From: an uncultured Verrucomicrobiae bacterium
GTDB taxonomy: Bacteria; Verrucomicrobiota; Verrucomicrobiia; Limisphaerales; Palsa-1400
Length of the DNA stretch: 64,000 nt
NCBI GenBank assembly: GCA_963702845.1
Contig: OY969763.1
Location: forward strand, 608,001 to 672,000
Direction of reading: 5' to 3'
The stretch's first letter is position 1; each line of letters begins with the position of its first letter. This document shows positions 18,392 to 59,535 of the stretch, in pieces. The notes beneath the pieces are model-generated. The model worked only from the letters and a program-made list of their open reading frames with translations, made no database searches and was not told where the DNA came from. A program made the translations under genes and the position numbers.

Positions 18392-19747
18392 ATGCCCGAT
18401 TTCGATTCCATCATTCGTAACGGCACCATCGTCACTGCCGACGCCATCCGCCGCGCCGACATCGGTATCACCGAGGGCAAAATCGCCGCCATCGGTGCAA
18501 ATCTCTCCGGCTCCGCCAGTGAAGAAATTGACGCCGCCAATCTGCACATTTTCCCCGGCGCGATTGATGCCCACGTCCATTTTAACGAACCTGGCCGCAC
18601 CGAATGGGAAGGCATCGAAACCGGATCGCGCGCACTCGCTGCCGGTGGCGGCACCATGTTCTTTGACATGCCGCTCAACGCCCATCCACCGACGTGCGAT
18701 AAAGAAAGTTTCAAACTGAAGAACGCCGCCGCTGAAGCCAAGTCCGTCACCGACTTTGCACTGTGGGGCGGCCTCGTACCCGGCAATCTCGACAAACTTG
18801 AAGAACTCGCGAAGTGCGGCGTCATCGGTTTCAAAGCCTTCATGAGCAACAGCGGCATCGACGACTTCTCCAGCGTCGATGACCAAGTTCTTCGCGCCGG
18901 AATGAAAATCGCCGCGCAATTAAAACTCCCCGTCGCCGTCCACGCCGAGAGCGACTCCATGACCGCGCAGCTTGCACAAAAAGCGATCGCCGAAAACCGC
19001 ACCAGCGTACGCGACTATTTAGATTCGCGCCCAATCGAAGCCGAGCTCGATGCCATTCGTCGCGCCATCGACATCTCCGGCGAAACAGGTTGCAAGTTGC
19101 ACGTCGTCCACGTTAGTTCCGCCACCGGCGTTCAGCTCATCACCGCCGCGCGCGCGCGGGGAGTTGATGTCACCTGCGAAACCTGTCCGCATTATTTAGT
19201 GCTCACTGACCAGGACGTGGAACAACTCGGCGCCGTGGCGAAGTGCGCTCCGCCGCTCCGTTCCAAAGCAGAGCAGGGAAAACTTTGGTCCGAAGTCTTG
19301 ACTGGCAACGTTCACACGATCGGCTCCGATCACTCACCCGCACCGCCCGACATGAAAACGTCCGAAAACTTTTTCAAAGTCTGGGGCGGCATCTCCGGCG
19401 TCCAACATATGTTGCCGCTTTTAATTGACTCCGTAGCAGACGACGTGAGGAGGCTCACTATAATTTCCGCGGCGACCAGCTCCAACATCGCTAAGCGTTT
19501 CAAACTACCCACAACCAAGAGCGGTATCGCGATCGGCTCCGACGCCGACCTCGCGTTGGTCGATACGAACGACACCACGGCGATTGCAAAAAACGACCTC
19601 CTTTACCGACACAAACAGTCGCCCTATGTAGGCCGCCGCCTAAAAGCGAAAGTGGAACGCACCATCCTCCGAGGCCAAACCATTTTCGCGAACGGCAAAA
19701 TCATCGCCAAACCCGCCGGTCGTCTGATAAAACCCACTGAAAACTGA
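18392..19747 (+). CDS. allB: Allantoinase
   Basis: PGAIDAHVHFNEPGRTEWEG, DMPLN, GFKAF, VHAE, CETCPHYL, GSDHSP, WGGISG; start moved to MPDFDSIIRNG. Confidence 0.93.
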   Translation: MPDFDSIIRNGTIVTADAIRRADIGITEGKIAAIGANLSGSASEEIDAANLHIFPGAIDAHVHFNEPGRTEWEGIETGSRALAAGGGTMFFDMPLNAHPPTCDKESFKLKNAAAEAKSVTDFALWGGLVPGNLDKLEELAKCGVIGFKAFMSNSGIDDFSSVDDQVLRAGMKIAAQLKLPVAVHAESDSMTAQLAQKAIAENRTSVRDYLDSRPIEAELDAIRRAIDISGETGCKLHVVHVSSATGVQLITAARARGVDVTCETCPHYLVLTDQDVEQLGAVAKCAPPLRSKAEQGKLWSEVLTGNVHTIGSDHSPAPPDMKTSENFFKVWGGISGVQHMLPLLIDSVADDVRRLTIISAATSSNIAKRFKLPTTKSGIAIGSDADLALVDTNDTTAIAKNDLLYRHKQSPYVGRRLKAKVERTILRGQTIFANGKIIAKPAGRLIKPTEN

Positions 19748-54027: not shown

Positions 54028-54452
54028 CTAAATCGGTTCAATCGTGAAATCATTTTTCACGCGAAACAATTTTTCGAAGCCTTCGCTCAATTGTGGTGGT
54101 TCCAATTTCTTTGCCATCGCATAAATCGCCACATTCGGCACGCGAGCTTTGCCCGCGCGTTGTGCGTTGCGTTTTAGCGCCTCATCAACCGAACAATCGA
54201 AATAATATCCAATCACCCGAAACTTCGCCGCCCTTGCTTGCGCAATATAAGCAGCCCTCTTTTCGCGAGTGACATTGGTGTTATCGAGAACAAAGGGCTG
54301 TTTCGCGCGCAAACACGCCTCGATGAGAGTCTTTTCCCGAGTTTCCGTCCGTAGCATGTCGCGATTGATGCGCACATGCGTATCGAGGAAATTCTTGGTG
54401 TAGAACGTAGATTTCCGGAGCCCGGTATACCGATGAACAAGACCAGTTCCAT
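54028..54452 (-). CDS. AAA_33 P-loop kinase-like protein, frameshifted in the P-loop
   Basis: MELVLFIGIPGSG|KSTFY...RINRD.L...VLDNTN...RN.QR...P...EGF. Confidence 0.75.
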
Positions 54453-54465
54453 ACTGGCACGCCGG

Positions 54466-55906
54466 TTAGCTCTTCAGCTTTCGCTCGAGAATTTCGCCGA
54501 TCAGATCCAGGGTTAGCCTTTCCTTTGCTGATTCTCATCACTTGGCCTTTGAGAAAGTTGAGTGCTGCCGCATTGCCTGCCTTGTAATCGGCAGCAGGGC
54601 GAGGATTGGCGGCGATGACCTCGTCGCAGAATTTTTCAATGGCACCGGTATCGCTGACCTGGGCCAGGCCTTTTTTCTCCACAATCGCGCTTGGCATTTC
54701 GCCGGTTTCAAACATGTCGCCGAAGACCTGCTGGCCGATGGCGCTGCTGATTTTTTTGCTGTCGACGAGCGAGACAAGTTCGATGATCGCCTCAGGCTTG
54801 AACTTTACGTCGTGCAAGGCCGTGCCGGTTTCGCCGAGCTTCGCACGCAAATTATTGATCACCCAGTTAGCAACGGCTTTCGGATTGCTTGGACTGTTTC
54901 GCCACGGTTTCGAAATACAAGCCAAGCGGCGCATCCCACACAAATGTCTGCGCATCTGAAGCAGGTAATTGATATTCTGAAATCATGCCGTTGTTTCTTC
55001 GCCAACGGCAGTTCCACGACGCGCGCTTTCACTTCTTGCAAGCCACTCGTCGGTTGGAACGAACGGCATCAGAGTCGGGTTCCGGAAAATAGCGGTAATC
55101 GTGCGCTTCTTCTTTGGAACGCATCAATTCGGTGATTCCACCTTCATCATCCCAGCGGCGCGTTTCCTGAAACAATTGGCCGCCGCTTTTGATTACCTCA
55201 ATCTGGCGCGGGATCTCATATTGCAACGCCCGCCGAACACCGCTGAAGGTGTTCATGTTTTTGATTTCGATTTTCTTCCCCAAGCGTTTTTTGGCCGACC
55301 GGGCGCACGCTGACGTTCACATCGCATCGCACCATGCCTTTTTCCATGTCTGCGTCACTGACGCCGCCGTAAATTAAAATCTCCTTCAGCGCGTTCACAT
55401 ATTCATAAGCCATGTCGGCGCTGGTGATGTCCGGCTCCGAAACGATTTCCAGCAACGGCACTCCGGCGCGATTGAAATCAACACCGCTAAATCGCGGGAA
55501 ATGGAAGTTTTTGCCGACGTCTTCTTCCAGGTGCGCGCGCGTGATGCGAACGCTGCGCAATCTGACCTTCAAATTCGAAATCAACGTAGCCATTTTGCGT
55601 CGACGGTTTGTCGAATTGAGTCACCTGATAATTCTTGGGCATGTCCGGATAGAAATAATTCTTCCGGTCAAACTTTGCGTAACGGGTCACTTCGCAATTG
55701 AGCAGATAGCCAGTCAAGGCGGTCAGCCGCAACGCTTCTTCATTGGCCACCGGCAACACGCCGGGCATGCCGAGGCAAACGGGGCAGACGTTGGTATTCG
55801 GCGGCGCGCCGAATTCATTCGCGCAGCCGCACCACATCTTTGATTTCGTCTTTAGCTGGACATGCGTTTCCAGTCCGATAACAGCTTCGTATTCCACAAC
55901 AGACAA
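54466..55906 (-). CDS. gatB: Asp/Glu-tRNA amidotransferase subunit B, multiple frameshifts
   Basis: [76 protein letters not shown]. Confidence 0.93.
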
Positions 55907-55957
55907 ATCTTTCTCAATTAAACCGCACTTTGCAAATGCGTAAACGTGCTCAGCCCC

Positions 55958-56425
55958 TCATAAACGCCGATTAACATAATGCAAGATCTTGAACTCAGGG
56001 TTGTCGCGCAGTTGCTCGACCAGGTCGAAATTACCCTCAAACGGTGGAAAAAAAGCATCGCCTTCCACCGTGCGTTTCACAACTGTCAGATAAAGGTCAG
56101 AACATTCAGCGAGCGTTTGCGAGTAGATCTGTGCGCCGCCACAAATAAACACTTCGCGAGTTTCTTTTGAAACATCAATGTCTCTCCAGTCCGCAACGGT
56201 CGCTACTCCCGGATAAGAAAATCCAGTCCGGCTAATAACAATCGTTGTGCGATTGGGCAGTGGCCTGCCAATCGATTCAAAAGTCTTCCGGCCCATGACA
56301 ACGACATTGCCGGTGGTCAATTGTTTGAACCACTTGAAATCCTCAGGCAGATGCCACGGAATCTGATTGCCGCGTCCGATGACCCGGTTTTCGCTCATGG
56401 CGGCAATGGCTTTGAAGTGTTTCAA
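55958..56425 (-). CDS. folA: Dihydrofolate reductase
   Basis: IAAMSENRVIG..NQIPWHLPED, MGRKTFES, PLPNR, ICGGAQIY, EGDAFFP; TTG start. Confidence 0.93.
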   Translation of the reverse strand: MKHFKAIAAMSENRVIGRGNQIPWHLPEDFKWFKQLTTGNVVVMGRKTFESIGRPLPNRTTIVISRTGFSYPGVATVADWRDIDVSKETREVFICGGAQIYSQTLAECSDLYLTVVKRTVEGDAFFPPFEGNFDLVEQLRDNPEFKILHYVNRRL

Positions 56426-56498
56426 CCTCGACCGTTGTAACTCAAACGCGCCGATGCGCAAAGCCGCAACATTCAAGCCGATTGAATCAGCTTGGTTG

Positions 56499-57731
56499 AT
56501 GGTTCGTCCATTGCTTGTGACATGTGTTAACCAAAAAAGCTCTGGGCTCGCCTTTTTCTGTTTATTTCTCATTGCGTCGGTTGCCCACGCGGTTGACGCG
56601 CCAAAGCGTTTCAGCCAGGAAAAATTCGTCATCGGCCTCTGGAACCCGCCGGAGCGCGGTGACTTTGACAAAGCATACAAGGAAATTGCCGAAGCAAACT
56701 TCACGCTCGTGGTCAACACGCCCCAACTAAAACTCTGCGAAAAATATGGTCTGCAGGCGCTGATTTCCAATGGCATCAACGAGCCCGTGCCGGATAGTCC
56801 CGCTTGCATCGGCTATTTCGTCGCTGACGAACCGGGCCCAGGTTCGTATCCCGAAATGGCCCGACGTGCTGAAGAAGTCCGCACGAAGAAACCGGGTAAG
56901 TTCGGCTATATCAATTTGCTGCCAAATTATGCGCCGGCGTGGGCACTCGGCGGGACTTACGACGATTACGTAGGCAATTTCATCAAGATCGTCAAACCGG
57001 AGGTGTTGTCGATGGATAACTACCCGACGATGCGCCCGGATGGTGATTCGCGGCCAACGTATCGCTCGAACCTGGAGGTTTTCCGCAAATACGCCACGGA
57101 GGCCAACATCCCGTTTTGGAATTATTTTTACTGCATGCCGTTCAACGAGAAGTTGGATCCGACGGAAGCGCAGATTCGGTGGCAAATCTTTACGTCGATC
57201 GCTTACGGCGCCAAAGGCGTTCTTTACTTTTGTTATTGGACTCCGGGTAAAGGCGCTGCCGGGGGCGGTGAATTTCCCAAAGGCGGCGCGATCATTACGG
57301 CTGAAGGCCTGAAGACGCGGCATTACGATGAAGCGAGGCGGATCAATGCCGAAGTGAAGAATCTCGGGCCGACGTTGATGAAATTGAAAAGCACTGGCGT
57401 TTATCTGGTGACAACAACCGCTGCGACAACCATTCCGGCGTCGAGCGGGTTGACGAATCTCGCGGGGATTAAAGGCGATCCGGTTGGGAACTATCTTGTC
57501 GGCACGTTCACGTCGGGCGATGGTTCGCGCGCTGTTATGATCATGAACGACAACTATAGCTATACCGGATGGTTAAACCTGACGTTCGACATGGACGCGA
57601 AAGACGTGATGGAGGTTTCAAAAACGACCGGGCAACTTGAGCCGGTGGTTGATGACAGTCCGGAGCTAAAAGGGTTGCAGGCCTCGTTTGGTGCAGGCGA
57701 TGGACGGCTGTTCGTGCTTCCACGTCGATAG
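56499..57731 (+). CDS. Secreted putative glycoside hydrolase (TIM-barrel-like, family unclear)
   Basis: Signal peptide; GYFVADEP, YINLLP, SMDNYP, RWQ..TSIAYGAKGVLYF.YW. Confidence 0.65.
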   Translation: MVRPLLVTCVNQKSSGLAFFCLFLIASVAHAVDAPKRFSQEKFVIGLWNPPERGDFDKAYKEIAEANFTLVVNTPQLKLCEKYGLQALISNGINEPVPDSPACIGYFVADEPGPGSYPEMARRAEEVRTKKPGKFGYINLLPNYAPAWALGGTYDDYVGNFIKIVKPEVLSMDNYPTMRPDGDSRPTYRSNLEVFRKYATEANIPFWNYFYCMPFNEKLDPTEAQIRWQIFTSIAYGAKGVLYFCYWTPGKGAAGGGEFPKGGAIITAEGLKTRHYDEARRINAEVKNLGPTLMKLKSTGVYLVTTTAATTIPASSGLTNLAGIKGDPVGNYLVGTFTSGDGSRAVMIMNDNYSYTGWLNLTFDMDAKDVMEVSKTTGQLEPVVDDSPELKGLQASFGAGDGRLFVLPRR

Positions 57732-57770
57732 CTTGTTCTGACGCTGCGAACATAGAACAGTGATCATTTT

Positions 57771-57873
57771 TAACTCCCGTTAACTCCTGTTAACTCCTGT
57801 TAAGTGCCGTTTGCTGCCGTTTGTGACCGTCGAAGATTTACTTTTGGTTTGAATTCCTTTGAATTCCTTTGAA
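57771..57873. repeat. Two 10-bp-period tandem arrays
   Basis: TAACTCCCGT/TAACTCCTGT/TAACTCCTGT/TAAGTGCCGT/TTGCTGCCGT/TTGTGACCGT (57771-57830) and (TTTGAATTCC)x2.5 (57848-57873). Confidence 0.8.
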
Positions 57874-57966
57874 ACGGTCCGGGAGGCAGACAACCGCGTA
57901 CACACCAAGAGAGCTTGCCGAACGCTGATTAAGAGCTTCGGCGGTTGAATTACCCTGTTTCCCTAT

Positions 57967-58037
57967 TTGTCAAAGAACAATTGCCAGCCACTTGCTGGCG
58001 CATGAAGTAACTTACGACACTTGATATGATGTGTCAA
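57967..58037 (-). promoter_or_regulatory. Sigma70 promoter followed by hairpin and boxA-like motif
   Basis: Minus strand: TTGACA-17-TAAGTT (58037-58009), GCCAGC-AAGTG-GCTGGC (57999-57983), GTTCTTTGACAA (57978-57967). Confidence 0.65.
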
Positions 58038-58116
58038 ATCTATGATGATTTGAACGAGGCGCGGTCCGATGGGGTGTTCTCGACAGCACTGCACTTTCCC
58101 CGCTAAAGTCGATGGA

Positions 58117-59535
58117 ATGAAACCCTTGTATTCTCTGGCAGCGGCTTTGCTTTTAGTGTGCAACGGGAGCGCGGAAACGATTCAGTTGGGGGCGCGTCGC
58201 GAGCTGTTTGTTGATCGGTTTTTGATCGGGACGATGACGAATGCGGAGTTGCGCTTGCACGAGCCACGTCGGGATGGGCCGGCGATTCTTTTCGATAAAC
58301 CTTGGGATGGAGGGTTCTCCGCGTATGTGACGGTGTTCAAGGATGGGGATGTTTACCGGATGTATTATCGCGGGTCACCCAAGGCTGGCCACGATGGGAA
58401 TAGTAATGAATCGGTTTGTTATGCGGAGTCGAAAGACGGAATGGCGTGGACGAAACCGGACCTGGAACTCTTCGAGGTCGCAGGCACGAAGCACAACAAC
58501 GTGGTTCTGACGAACGCGCCGTATGCGCATAACTTCAGTCCGTTTCGCGATGAGGCTCCGTCCGCGACTGCCGGCGCTAGATATAAAGCGCTGGCAGGCC
58601 TCCAGAAGGGCGGGTTGCATGCGTTTGCTTCGGCGGATGCCCTTCACTGGAACCCGATGCAAGCTGAGCCGGTATTTACGCGAGGCGCTTTTGACTCGCA
58701 GAATGTGGCGTTCTGGTCGGTAACGGAATCGCAATATGTTTGTTACTTTCGCACCTGGAAGCAGATGACGAAGGATGGGTTTCGGTGGATTTCACGGACG
58801 ACGAGCAAAGATTTTGTGCATTGGACTGAGCCCGAAGAAATGGAATTTGGCGACACGGCGCCGGAGCATCTCTACACGAACGGCACGCATCCGTATTATC
58901 GCGCGCCACATATTTACATCGCGCTGGCGAAGCGGTTTTTTCCAAACAAGGTCGCATTGCCATCGGAACAGGCACGAAAGCTGGTGAACTATCCCGGGTA
59001 TCGCATTGCGTCGAGTGATTCGATTCTCATGACGACGCGCGGTGGCACACATTATGAGCGCGCGTTCATGGACGCATTCATTCGCCCGGGGCCGGATCCG
59101 GAAGATTGGATTTCGCGCGATAACATGCCGGCGTGCGGCGTGGTGCCGGGAGATGCGCGCACGATGTTCATTTATCGGATGTCGCATTATGCGCAGCCTT
59201 CGGCGGAGATGACGCGGTATTCATTGCGAACGGATGGGTTTATTTCGGTGCACGCTGCCTACGCAGGCGGTGAGATGGTGACGAAGCCATTTACGTTTTC
59301 TGGCTCGCAACTTTCACTGAATTTCCAGAGCAGCGCCGCGGGTGGAGTGCGGGTGGAATTGCAGGATAAAACGGGCAAGGTGTTGATGAATTGCGCGGAG
59401 ATGATGGGGGATGAAATCGATCGCGATGTGACATGGTCGCAGGGTGGTGATCTGCGCCGGTTTGCCGGGAAGACGGTTCGGTTGCGATTTATCTTAAAAG
59501 ATGCGGACCTTTATTCACTGCAGTTTCATGACTAG
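58117..59535 (+). CDS. Secreted five-bladed beta-propeller glycoside hydrolase-like protein
   Basis: RRELFVD, YRMYYR, YAESKDG..W.KP, FDSQN, S.DF.HW; C-terminal R.DGF...TKP...L.LN...G.VRVEL.D. Confidence 0.7.
   Translation: MKPLYSLAAALLLVCNGSAETIQLGARRELFVDRFLIGTMTNAELRLHEPRRDGPAILFDKPWDGGFSAYVTVFKDGDVYRMYYRGSPKAGHDGNSNESVCYAESKDGMAWTKPDLELFEVAGTKHNNVVLTNAPYAHNFSPFRDEAPSATAGARYKALAGLQKGGLHAFASADALHWNPMQAEPVFTRGAFDSQNVAFWSVTESQYVCYFRTWKQMTKDGFRWISRTTSKDFVHWTEPEEMEFGDTAPEHLYTNGTHPYYRAPHIYIALAKRFFPNKVALPSEQARKLVNYPGYRIASSDSILMTTRGGTHYERAFMDAFIRPGPDPEDWISRDNMPACGVVPGDARTMFIYRMSHYAQPSAEMTRYSLRTDGFISVHAAYAGGEMVTKPFTFSGSQLSLNFQSSAAGGVRVELQDKTGKVLMNCAEMMGDEIDRDVTWSQGGDLRRFAGKTVRLRFILKDADLYSLQFHD

Follow-up and report, generated by a model that had tools for sequence, protein, structure and literature searches.

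Antitermination through boxA and the Nus factors is textbook knowledge for rRNA, and the locus described here raises the question of what such a leader might be doing where no rRNA stands behind it. In the genome of an uncultured Verrucomicrobiae bacterium, at positions 57760-58037 of a 64,000-nucleotide stretch that was analysed as a whole (hereafter the window; contig OY969763.1, positions 608,001 to 672,000; window coordinates are used unless a genome position is given), the minus strand carries a predicted promoter, a hairpin and a boxA-like word, and behind these come a second hairpin and arrays of 10-nt units on the way to a convergent plus-strand gene. The parts of the locus, from the promoter onwards and with the neighbouring genes last, are these:

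58032..58037, minus strand: -35 hexamer TTGACA of the predicted promoter, by direct reading
58009..58014, minus strand: -10 hexamer TAAGTT, at a 17-nt spacer from the -35 hexamer, by direct reading
near 58001-58003, minus strand: predicted transcription start, placed from the promoter position
57983..57999, minus strand: hairpin in the boxB position, GCCAGC-aagtg-GCTGGC, with a perfect 6-bp GC stem
57967..57978, minus strand: boxA, the 12-mer GTTCTTTGACAA, by direct reading
57917..57942, minus strand: second hairpin, GCCGAAGCUC...GCGUUCGGC, from the fold of the locus
57848..57873, minus strand: array 1, 2.6 units of AAAGGAATTC, 100% matches
57805..57823, minus strand: array 2, 1.9 units of CAAACGGCAG, 100% matches
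57770..57811, minus strand: array 3, 4.2 units of TTAAC(A/G)GGAG, 87% matches, terminating in TTAAAAAT
57766..57793, minus strand: promoter-like site TTAACA-16-AAAAAT inside array 3, a consensus match alone
57666..57767, minus strand: 33-codon ORF behind a Shine-Dalgarno-like GGGAG, no family match
56499..57731, plus strand: convergent gene for a secreted protein with no Pfam or NCBIfam family but with homologues in relatives
58117..59535, plus strand: divergent neighbouring gene for a secreted protein with weak likeness to GH32, starting 80 nt behind the -35 hexamer

All the leader parts that the initial annotation had claimed, namely TTGACA-17-TAAGTT, the GCCAGC/GCTGGC hairpin and GTTCTTTGACAA, are indeed present on the minus strand at these places. 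The promoter sits 30 nt upstream of boxA, and its -10 is weak: TAAGTT matches TATAAT at three of six positions, keeping T1, A2 and T6, and is rejected by the 4-of-6 filter for the -10 hexamer in both promoter scans used. TTGACA and a 16-18-nt spacing are common to this copy and to the promoter-like sites found at 27 of the 57 intergenic boxA sites described below. The gap between the hairpin and boxA is 4 nt (AATT), as in rrn leaders, and the 32 nt upstream of boxA have a folding energy of -11.5 kcal/mol. Paralogous heads have a hairpin in the equivalent position with a different sequence, and a CCGCCGA(A/G)G hairpin like that at 57917-57942 is also found behind boxA both in other copies in the genome and in relatives.

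Comparison of the 12-mer with the boxA of this genome's own rrn operon had been set beforehand as the test of the boxA reading, and the reading passes it because GTTCTTTGACAA is identical, letter for letter, to the 23S-proximal boxA of the only rrn operon of the genome (G000), which is one contig of 6.03 Mb with a single 16S gene. The same word, which in rrn lies within the transcribed spacer, precedes the 23S gene by 69-73 nt in two relatives of the same family but not of this genus (G017 and G012), and a second boxA in the 16S-23S spacer of G000, GTTCTTTAACAA, directly follows the 16S gene. Measured against GYTCTTTAANA, which PMC5725501 gives as the gamma-proteobacterial consensus, GTTCTTTAACAA agrees at 11 of 11 positions and GTTCTTTGACAA at 10 of 11. 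The genome has two matches to the NusB domain and two to the RNA-binding domain of Rho; the latter lie at genome positions 4238664-4238885 (538-aa open frame) and 2028759-2028971 (393-aa open frame) and may represent two Rho paralogues. Recognition of boxA by NusB and S10 is established in E. coli and not in this phylum; the identity with the rrn word supports the view that GTTCTTTGACAA behaves as this organism's boxA, and binding of Nus factors to it is a prediction. Read instead as a -35 hexamer, the boxA word has no -10 hexamer 16-18 nt behind it in the copies read by eye. The other near-match in the window, GTTCTTTGACAT at 18658, falls within a long ORF and appears fortuitous.

The gene at 56499-57731, which had been placed opposite the leader, is a real one by the evidence of its homologues, which were found in relatives at 79%, 67%, 61% and 53% identity, the first three with no internal stop and the last with a single TGA. 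The claim that no rRNA, tRNA, CRISPR array or credible ORF follows the leader held up in Rfam, tRNA/tmRNA, ORF and repeat scans. Rfam gave no match in the window at the gathering score, none at E<=1 in the 3.4-kb locus around the element and none at E<=1 in two further family loci; no tRNA or tmRNA gene was found in 55500-58500; and the minus-strand ORFs at the locus are short (33, 42 and 70 aa) or overlap the plus-strand gene. The units of the arrays are 10 nt long and stand head to tail with no spacers, as against CRISPR repeats of ~24-48 nt with unique spacers. In the minus-strand stretches scanned within 55900-58800, the terminator-like sites are the leader hairpin itself, 56460 and 55940, the latter two near folA, and none was found in the stretches scanned between the leader hairpin and 56460, near the folA start. 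No intrinsic terminator of the kind expected for a stand-alone small RNA was therefore found within a few hundred nt of the predicted start, and the discrete non-coding RNA of 200-250 nt that had been suggested is unsupported, since no terminator-like site appears until 56460 in the stretches scanned. For the same reason a minus-strand transcript would run antisense into 56499-57731 and, as there is no co-oriented gene here either, its product would be a Rho-resistant non-coding RNA antisense to that gene.

Between the leader and the convergent gene lie the decamer arrays. Two arrays of 10-bp period and an A-tract had been described; the arrays are real, but their number has to be corrected, as Tandem Repeats Finder reports three period-10 arrays at the locus. 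Array 1 has palindromic GAATTC cores that are able to pair with each other, and a 33-nt match of 97% identity to it was found at genome position 2703008; because an array like array 2 follows this paralogue (genome 2702903), the order of the modules is kept. The GTTAAC cores of array 3 are likewise palindromic, neighbouring units can pair, and its paralogue is a 42-nt match of 86% identity at genome 3388424-3388383. Modules of the copy at 57760-58037 thus recur at genome 2703008, 2702903 and 3388404. The whole predicted RNA of 249 nt folds with z = -2.0, and for 10-bp A/T periodicity 57761-57880 ranks in the uppermost 0.08% of windows in the genome (84 of 100,458). As RNA, the AAAGGAATTC units (57857-57872) contain UCAAAG(GA), which is complementary to the boxA core (UU)CUUUGA (57970-57975), so that array 1 could pair with boxA and mask it; a match of six letters at this distance is within chance.

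The element had been called an orphan, which is correct in that no co-oriented gene follows it and incorrect in that it is not singular, being one of 57 intergenic boxA sites. The exact 12-mer GTTCTTTGACAA occurs six times in the 6.03-Mb genome, against ~0.7 occurrences expected from length alone. The pattern G[ACT]TCTTTGA[CA]A[AT] has 73 sites, 57 of them intergenic in a genome of which ~17% is intergenic, and three control motifs (one reversed, two scrambled) gave 15, 1 and 2 sites, of which 0, 0 and 1 were intergenic; intergenic status in these counts rests on a crude in-house gene caller, and several housekeeping genes look split. A promoter-like site lies within 110 nt upstream of 27 of the 57 intergenic boxA sites, compared with 2.6% of 1500 random intergenic places, and a hairpin of <= -6 kcal/mol occupies the 32 nt upstream of 70% of the 57, compared with 32% of controls. 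Across the genome, where the initial annotation had proposed to look for promoter, boxA and 10-bp arrays, the features are found in combination far more often than in controls. The locus at genome 4596814 repeats the exact layout of promoter, hairpin, identical 12-mer, repeat body and convergent gene, and the many dispersed copies share modules, as a mobile intergenic repeat would.

The commonest head (TTGACA-16-TATAAT, two hairpins and boxA) is present in 32 copies according to an nhmmer profile of the main head. When 15 heads from the main subfamily are aligned, the two hairpins have 92% of their cells paired, compared with 23-55% when the partner is slid, and the stems covary, with four base pairs changed on both sides and with 15 G.U and 4 A.C cells; independent pair changes are few because the aligned copies are paralogues of two subfamilies. 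Similarity within the main family begins ~12-16 nt before the -35 hexamer and ends at a T-run, as judged by eye. The arrays of the main subfamily form the two arms of a ~90-nt hairpin, for which there are two alleles with different units and with the pairing kept.

The relation of the boxA sites to the genes ahead of them bears on whether they are gene leaders. At 34 of the 57 sites the called gene ahead points the same way as boxA, and at 23 (~40%, including this copy) it is convergent; the proportion is 27 to 20 among sites with a well-supported gene ahead and 15 to 12 among those with a promoter match. Since orientation to the next gene is near random, a role as gene leader is not general, and the pattern suggests an autonomous unit and not the dedicated leader of particular genes. 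The co-oriented genes behind the modules are ordinary and varied (yebC-like, rpsO, kaiC-like, genes for secreted proteins and others). One boxA with the promoter match TTGACA-16-CATAAT is located at genome 3021569 on the minus strand, 403 nt upstream of rpsO (ribosomal protein S15). Several genes in this genome look split: gatB is spread over several ORFs (54281-55906, minus strand), with only its C-terminal GatB_Yqey part in one frame, and pta-like and thiE-like genes behind two cassettes (genome ~5301962-5303100 and 3387783-3388290) have a similar appearance. These split genes suggest indel errors in a long-read assembly or else pseudogenes, and they weaken ORF-based gene calls in this genome.

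The coupling between boxA and the arrays has a direction. Among periods of 9-12 nt, the best period downstream of boxA is 10 nt at 45 of the 57 sites, and the best 30-nt window there has a median of 20 matches in 30, compared with 15 at random intergenic or coding places. Tandem Repeats Finder reports 207 period-10 arrays in the genome, 179 of them intergenic; of these 179, 45 follow a boxA at a distance of up to 450 nt and none precedes one, the 450-nt zone making up 2.5% of intergenic bases. When period-20 arrays are included, there are 216 intergenic arrays in 154 clusters with 196 distinct consensus units; a boxA core lies within 450 nt in the proper orientation at 51 of the 154 clusters and in the wrong orientation at 18. 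Multiples of 3 apart, 10 is the commonest array period, and the majority of arrays have no boxA beside them. Folding of the 180 nt that follow each of the 57 boxA sites gives a mean z of -2.07, compared with -0.31 for control intergenic DNA. Folding is equal on both strands (26 of 57 regions fold better on the boxA strand, with means of -52.8 and -53.1 kcal/mol), which gives no strand-specific sign that the array part acts as RNA. Two other kinds of repeat were observed in the course of this survey. A repeat of ~100 nt (…CCCGTCCCACGGGACGGGTCAAAACC…CTTGGGACGGGGTGACGGGTCCAGAGGGGG…) with a palindromic start has ~15 copies inside long leaders, at genome 3388660-3388560 (where Rfam gave no match), 2703140-2703040 and ~13 more places, and TTGGAGCTT/TTTGGAG arrays, with a Shine-Dalgarno-like GGAG every ~10 nt, are present at genome 2702800-2702715 and dozens of other places, the array at 2702800-2702715 being immediately upstream of the start codon in a gene for a BatA-like membrane protein.

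In the host's bacterial family, the motif outnumbers its reversed control in every genome listed: 73 sites to 15 in G000, 41 to 8 in G002, 67 to 5 in G006, 62 to 7 in G017, 45 to 7 in G012 and 50 to 10 in G022. One genome from each of 16 other families of the order gave counts mostly near the control, those above it being G033 (33 to 16) and G034 (20 to 4). The boxA motif is expanded across the host's family and not in most of the other families sampled in the order. Architecture is shared as well: an upstream hairpin was found at 25 of 30 boxA sites inspected in G006, G017 and G012, and many sites in these genomes have the same order of promoter, hairpin, boxA, CCGCCGA(A/G)G hairpin and arrays of other units.

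The individual copy has no such distribution. Conservation of the locus in relatives, a check set beforehand, failed, as the copy is absent from the orthologous loci examined. When the 382-nt intergenic region was searched by BLAST in 40 relatives, a single 28-nt match was returned; no boxA (strict 12-mer pattern) was found near homologues of the convergent gene, taken as 56367-57731, in the relatives' loci, nor behind its homologue in any of the 28 metagenome loci with a long match that were examined out of 50; and G001, of the same genus, has a different neighbourhood at the locus. A stand-alone small RNA would be expected to have a locus conserved in sequence or structure, and this one is not. 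Other cassettes behave alike. For the yebC-like, rpsO and kaiC-like genes headed by cassettes, none of eight orthologous loci has a boxA upstream within 700 nt (462 and 507 nt for two short contigs), the rpsO loci of G003, G006 and G017 being without one within 507-700 nt; arrays with other units are present at two of the eight loci. In a metagenomic relative of ~90-95% identity, 57180-57802 and 57983-58719 are kept, so that the promoter-hairpin side and the array 3 end are retained, and 57803-57982, with boxA and two arrays, is replaced by 188 unalignable letters. Judged from this alignment, the 180-nt replacement looks like module swapping. The contig of this near relative also has 2350 extra letters between folA and its divergent gene (window 56475-56503).

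Several explanations compete with a transcribed, antiterminated leader. This copy might be a relic, that is, a decaying or recently shuffled insertion of a real family, functionless here and with an inconsequential transcript. The weak TAAGTT, the lack of the copy at every orthologous locus examined, the exchange of the central 180 nt in the nearest relative, the patchwork of modules known from other loci and the failure of cassette-gene pairs to persist (0 of 8 orthologous loci for three other genes) would all fit; yet decay would not leave a boxA that copies the rrn word without error, a hairpin with no mismatch and arrays of 87-100% regularity, and the near relative retains the promoter and hairpin region. 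We hold a relic to be unlikely, though the strongest of these competitors. Somewhat less likely still is an explanation at the level of DNA, in which the phased 10-bp arrays would consist of bent DNA, of DNA wrapped by protein or of serial binding sites, and the boxA-like word would have its importance as DNA, or by descent alone. The exceptional A/T periodicity of 57761-57880 (top 0.08% of windows), the 216 intergenic arrays in 154 clusters, of which only 51 have a properly oriented boxA core within 450 nt, the equality of forward and reverse folding and the palindromic hexamers that often form the array cores are what it would predict. However, the 196 distinct units among 216 arrays speak against a single sequence-specific binder, and both the upstream promoter and the strictly one-sided placing of arrays about boxA (45 downstream, 0 upstream) fit a transcription unit. 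In the copies read by eye the boxA word is no -35 hexamer, and in rrn it sits in a transcribed spacer.

Three further explanations concern what lies beyond the leader. Antiterminated read-through to folA-gatB-mpl, which had been put forward as an alternative product, would make the element a long leader of these genes, and we consider this very unlikely. On the minus strand from 57766 to the folA start at 56425, a simple scan picked up no promoter close to consensus, and only 73 nt (56426-56498) lie between the start codons of folA and the divergent plus-strand gene; but the scan detects near-consensus promoters alone, 1.58 kb would have to be transcribed in opposition to a convergent gene that is real, the near relative has its 2350 extra letters in front of folA, and the same divergent pair stands in G002, where the 3' flank is beyond view. 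Slightly poorer again are the prospects of a 5' leader with translational control for the 33-codon ORF, or of an additional promoter within array 3. GGGAG stands 6 nt before the ATG at 57767 and TTAACA-16-AAAAAT occupies 57793-57766; against this, the ORF is familyless and overlaps the 3' end of the real gene at 56499-57731, and a paralogous array end reads ATA where the ORF has ATG, so that the ORF is probably no gene. Lowest of all we place a CsrB/RsmZ-like sponge RNA, which would expose GGA motifs in 4-nt loops between GUUAAC stems. The GUUAAC-AGGA-GUUAAC and GGAAUUC units resemble CsrA sites, but a six-frame search of the whole genome gave no match to the CsrA domain (PF02599), whereas control genomes were matched, and an RNA that sequesters CsrA/RsmA was rejected accordingly.

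Our preferred reading takes the locus as a single copy of a lineage-specific, multi-copy module that evolves fast, an autonomous promoter-boxB-boxA leader that would make a Nus-modified, Rho-resistant, untranslated RNA, in this copy antisense to a real gene, and we put its probability at roughly 0.55. In this model, a sigma-70-type promoter would start minus-strand transcription near 58002, and the first ~35 nt of the RNA would present a GC hairpin and then a boxA identical to that of the rRNA operon. Hairpin and boxA would recruit NusB-S10 and other Nus factors, as at rrn, and the Nus-modified RNA polymerase, now resistant to Rho, would carry the untranslated transcript through ~200 nt of hairpins and 10-nt arrays and on against the convergent gene, with possible effects on that gene and its neighbours. 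Where copies elsewhere are co-oriented with the next gene, the module would provide a promoter and a long leader for it. The Nus-protected transcript proposed in the initial annotation is thus retained in part: the identity of boxA, the adjoining hairpin and the presence of NusB and Rho genes speak for it, whereas the discrete RNA of 200-250 nt is unsupported and the element is not singular.

A broader and more tentative proposal, which we think improbable as it stands, is that these modules form an undescribed, family-wide class of autonomous, strongly promoted, boxA-tagged and Rho-proof non-coding units, ~50 or more per genome, with bodies of decamer-repeat hairpins. Such units could act in trans as sponges, either titrating NusB-S10, by which expression would be coupled to rRNA synthesis, or binding a protein that reads the repeats; in cis, they could be transcripts resistant to Rho that act as antisense RNAs or that insulate against read-through from neighbours, as here. 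Within one family of Verrucomicrobiota, a head of promoter, hairpin and boxA has multiplied and now occupies dozens of intergenic sites, coupled one-way to 10-nt arrays. If the modules are transcribed and Nus-dependent, they would amount to a naturally occurring collection of portable promoter-leader cassettes that withstand Rho, they would offer a means of gauging what share of a genome's non-coding and antisense transcription is purposely protected from Rho, and they would give a handle on the abundance of decamer arrays in these genomes.

The closest known system is the antitermination leader and spacer of rrn operons (boxB-boxA-boxC with NusA/B/E/G and SuhB). Like it, the locus has a predicted promoter, a hairpin and a boxA within ~35 nt of the predicted start, its boxA is identical to that of its own rrn spacer, and an untranslated RNA would follow; unlike it, the locus has no rRNA downstream, belongs to a set of dozens of copies in each genome and has a body made of 10-nt arrays, and its dependence on Nus factors is a prediction. 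As genomic objects, the modules can be compared with pneumococcal BOX and neisserial Correia elements, which are dispersed, modular, hairpin-forming intergenic repeats with variable internal units, some of them with promoters. The modules described here are dispersed, modular and hairpin-forming in the same way, but their array units differ from copy to copy, and we know of no BOX or Correia element that carries a Nus boxA. A keyword search of the literature for multi-copy boxA leaders, or for decamer arrays in Verrucomicrobia, found neither. To our knowledge, boxA-Nus antitermination outside rRNA is confined to a few single genes and to CRISPR arrays, in Proteobacteria. The boxA of CRISPR arrays shields from Rho a long RNA that is untranslated and carries repeats, and its location upstream of the arrays was reportedly described by Stringer et al. 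in 2020. Other non-rRNA targets named in PMC5725501 are the suhB 5' UTR and a ParE-like toxin gene. In all of these, as is predicted for the modules described here, boxA belongs to the leader of a non-rRNA transcript; theirs, however, are single conserved sites in Proteobacteria that are tied to particular genes or arrays, whereas the modules here belong to a multi-copy family of fast turnover in another phylum, ~40% of whose members have no co-oriented gene behind them.
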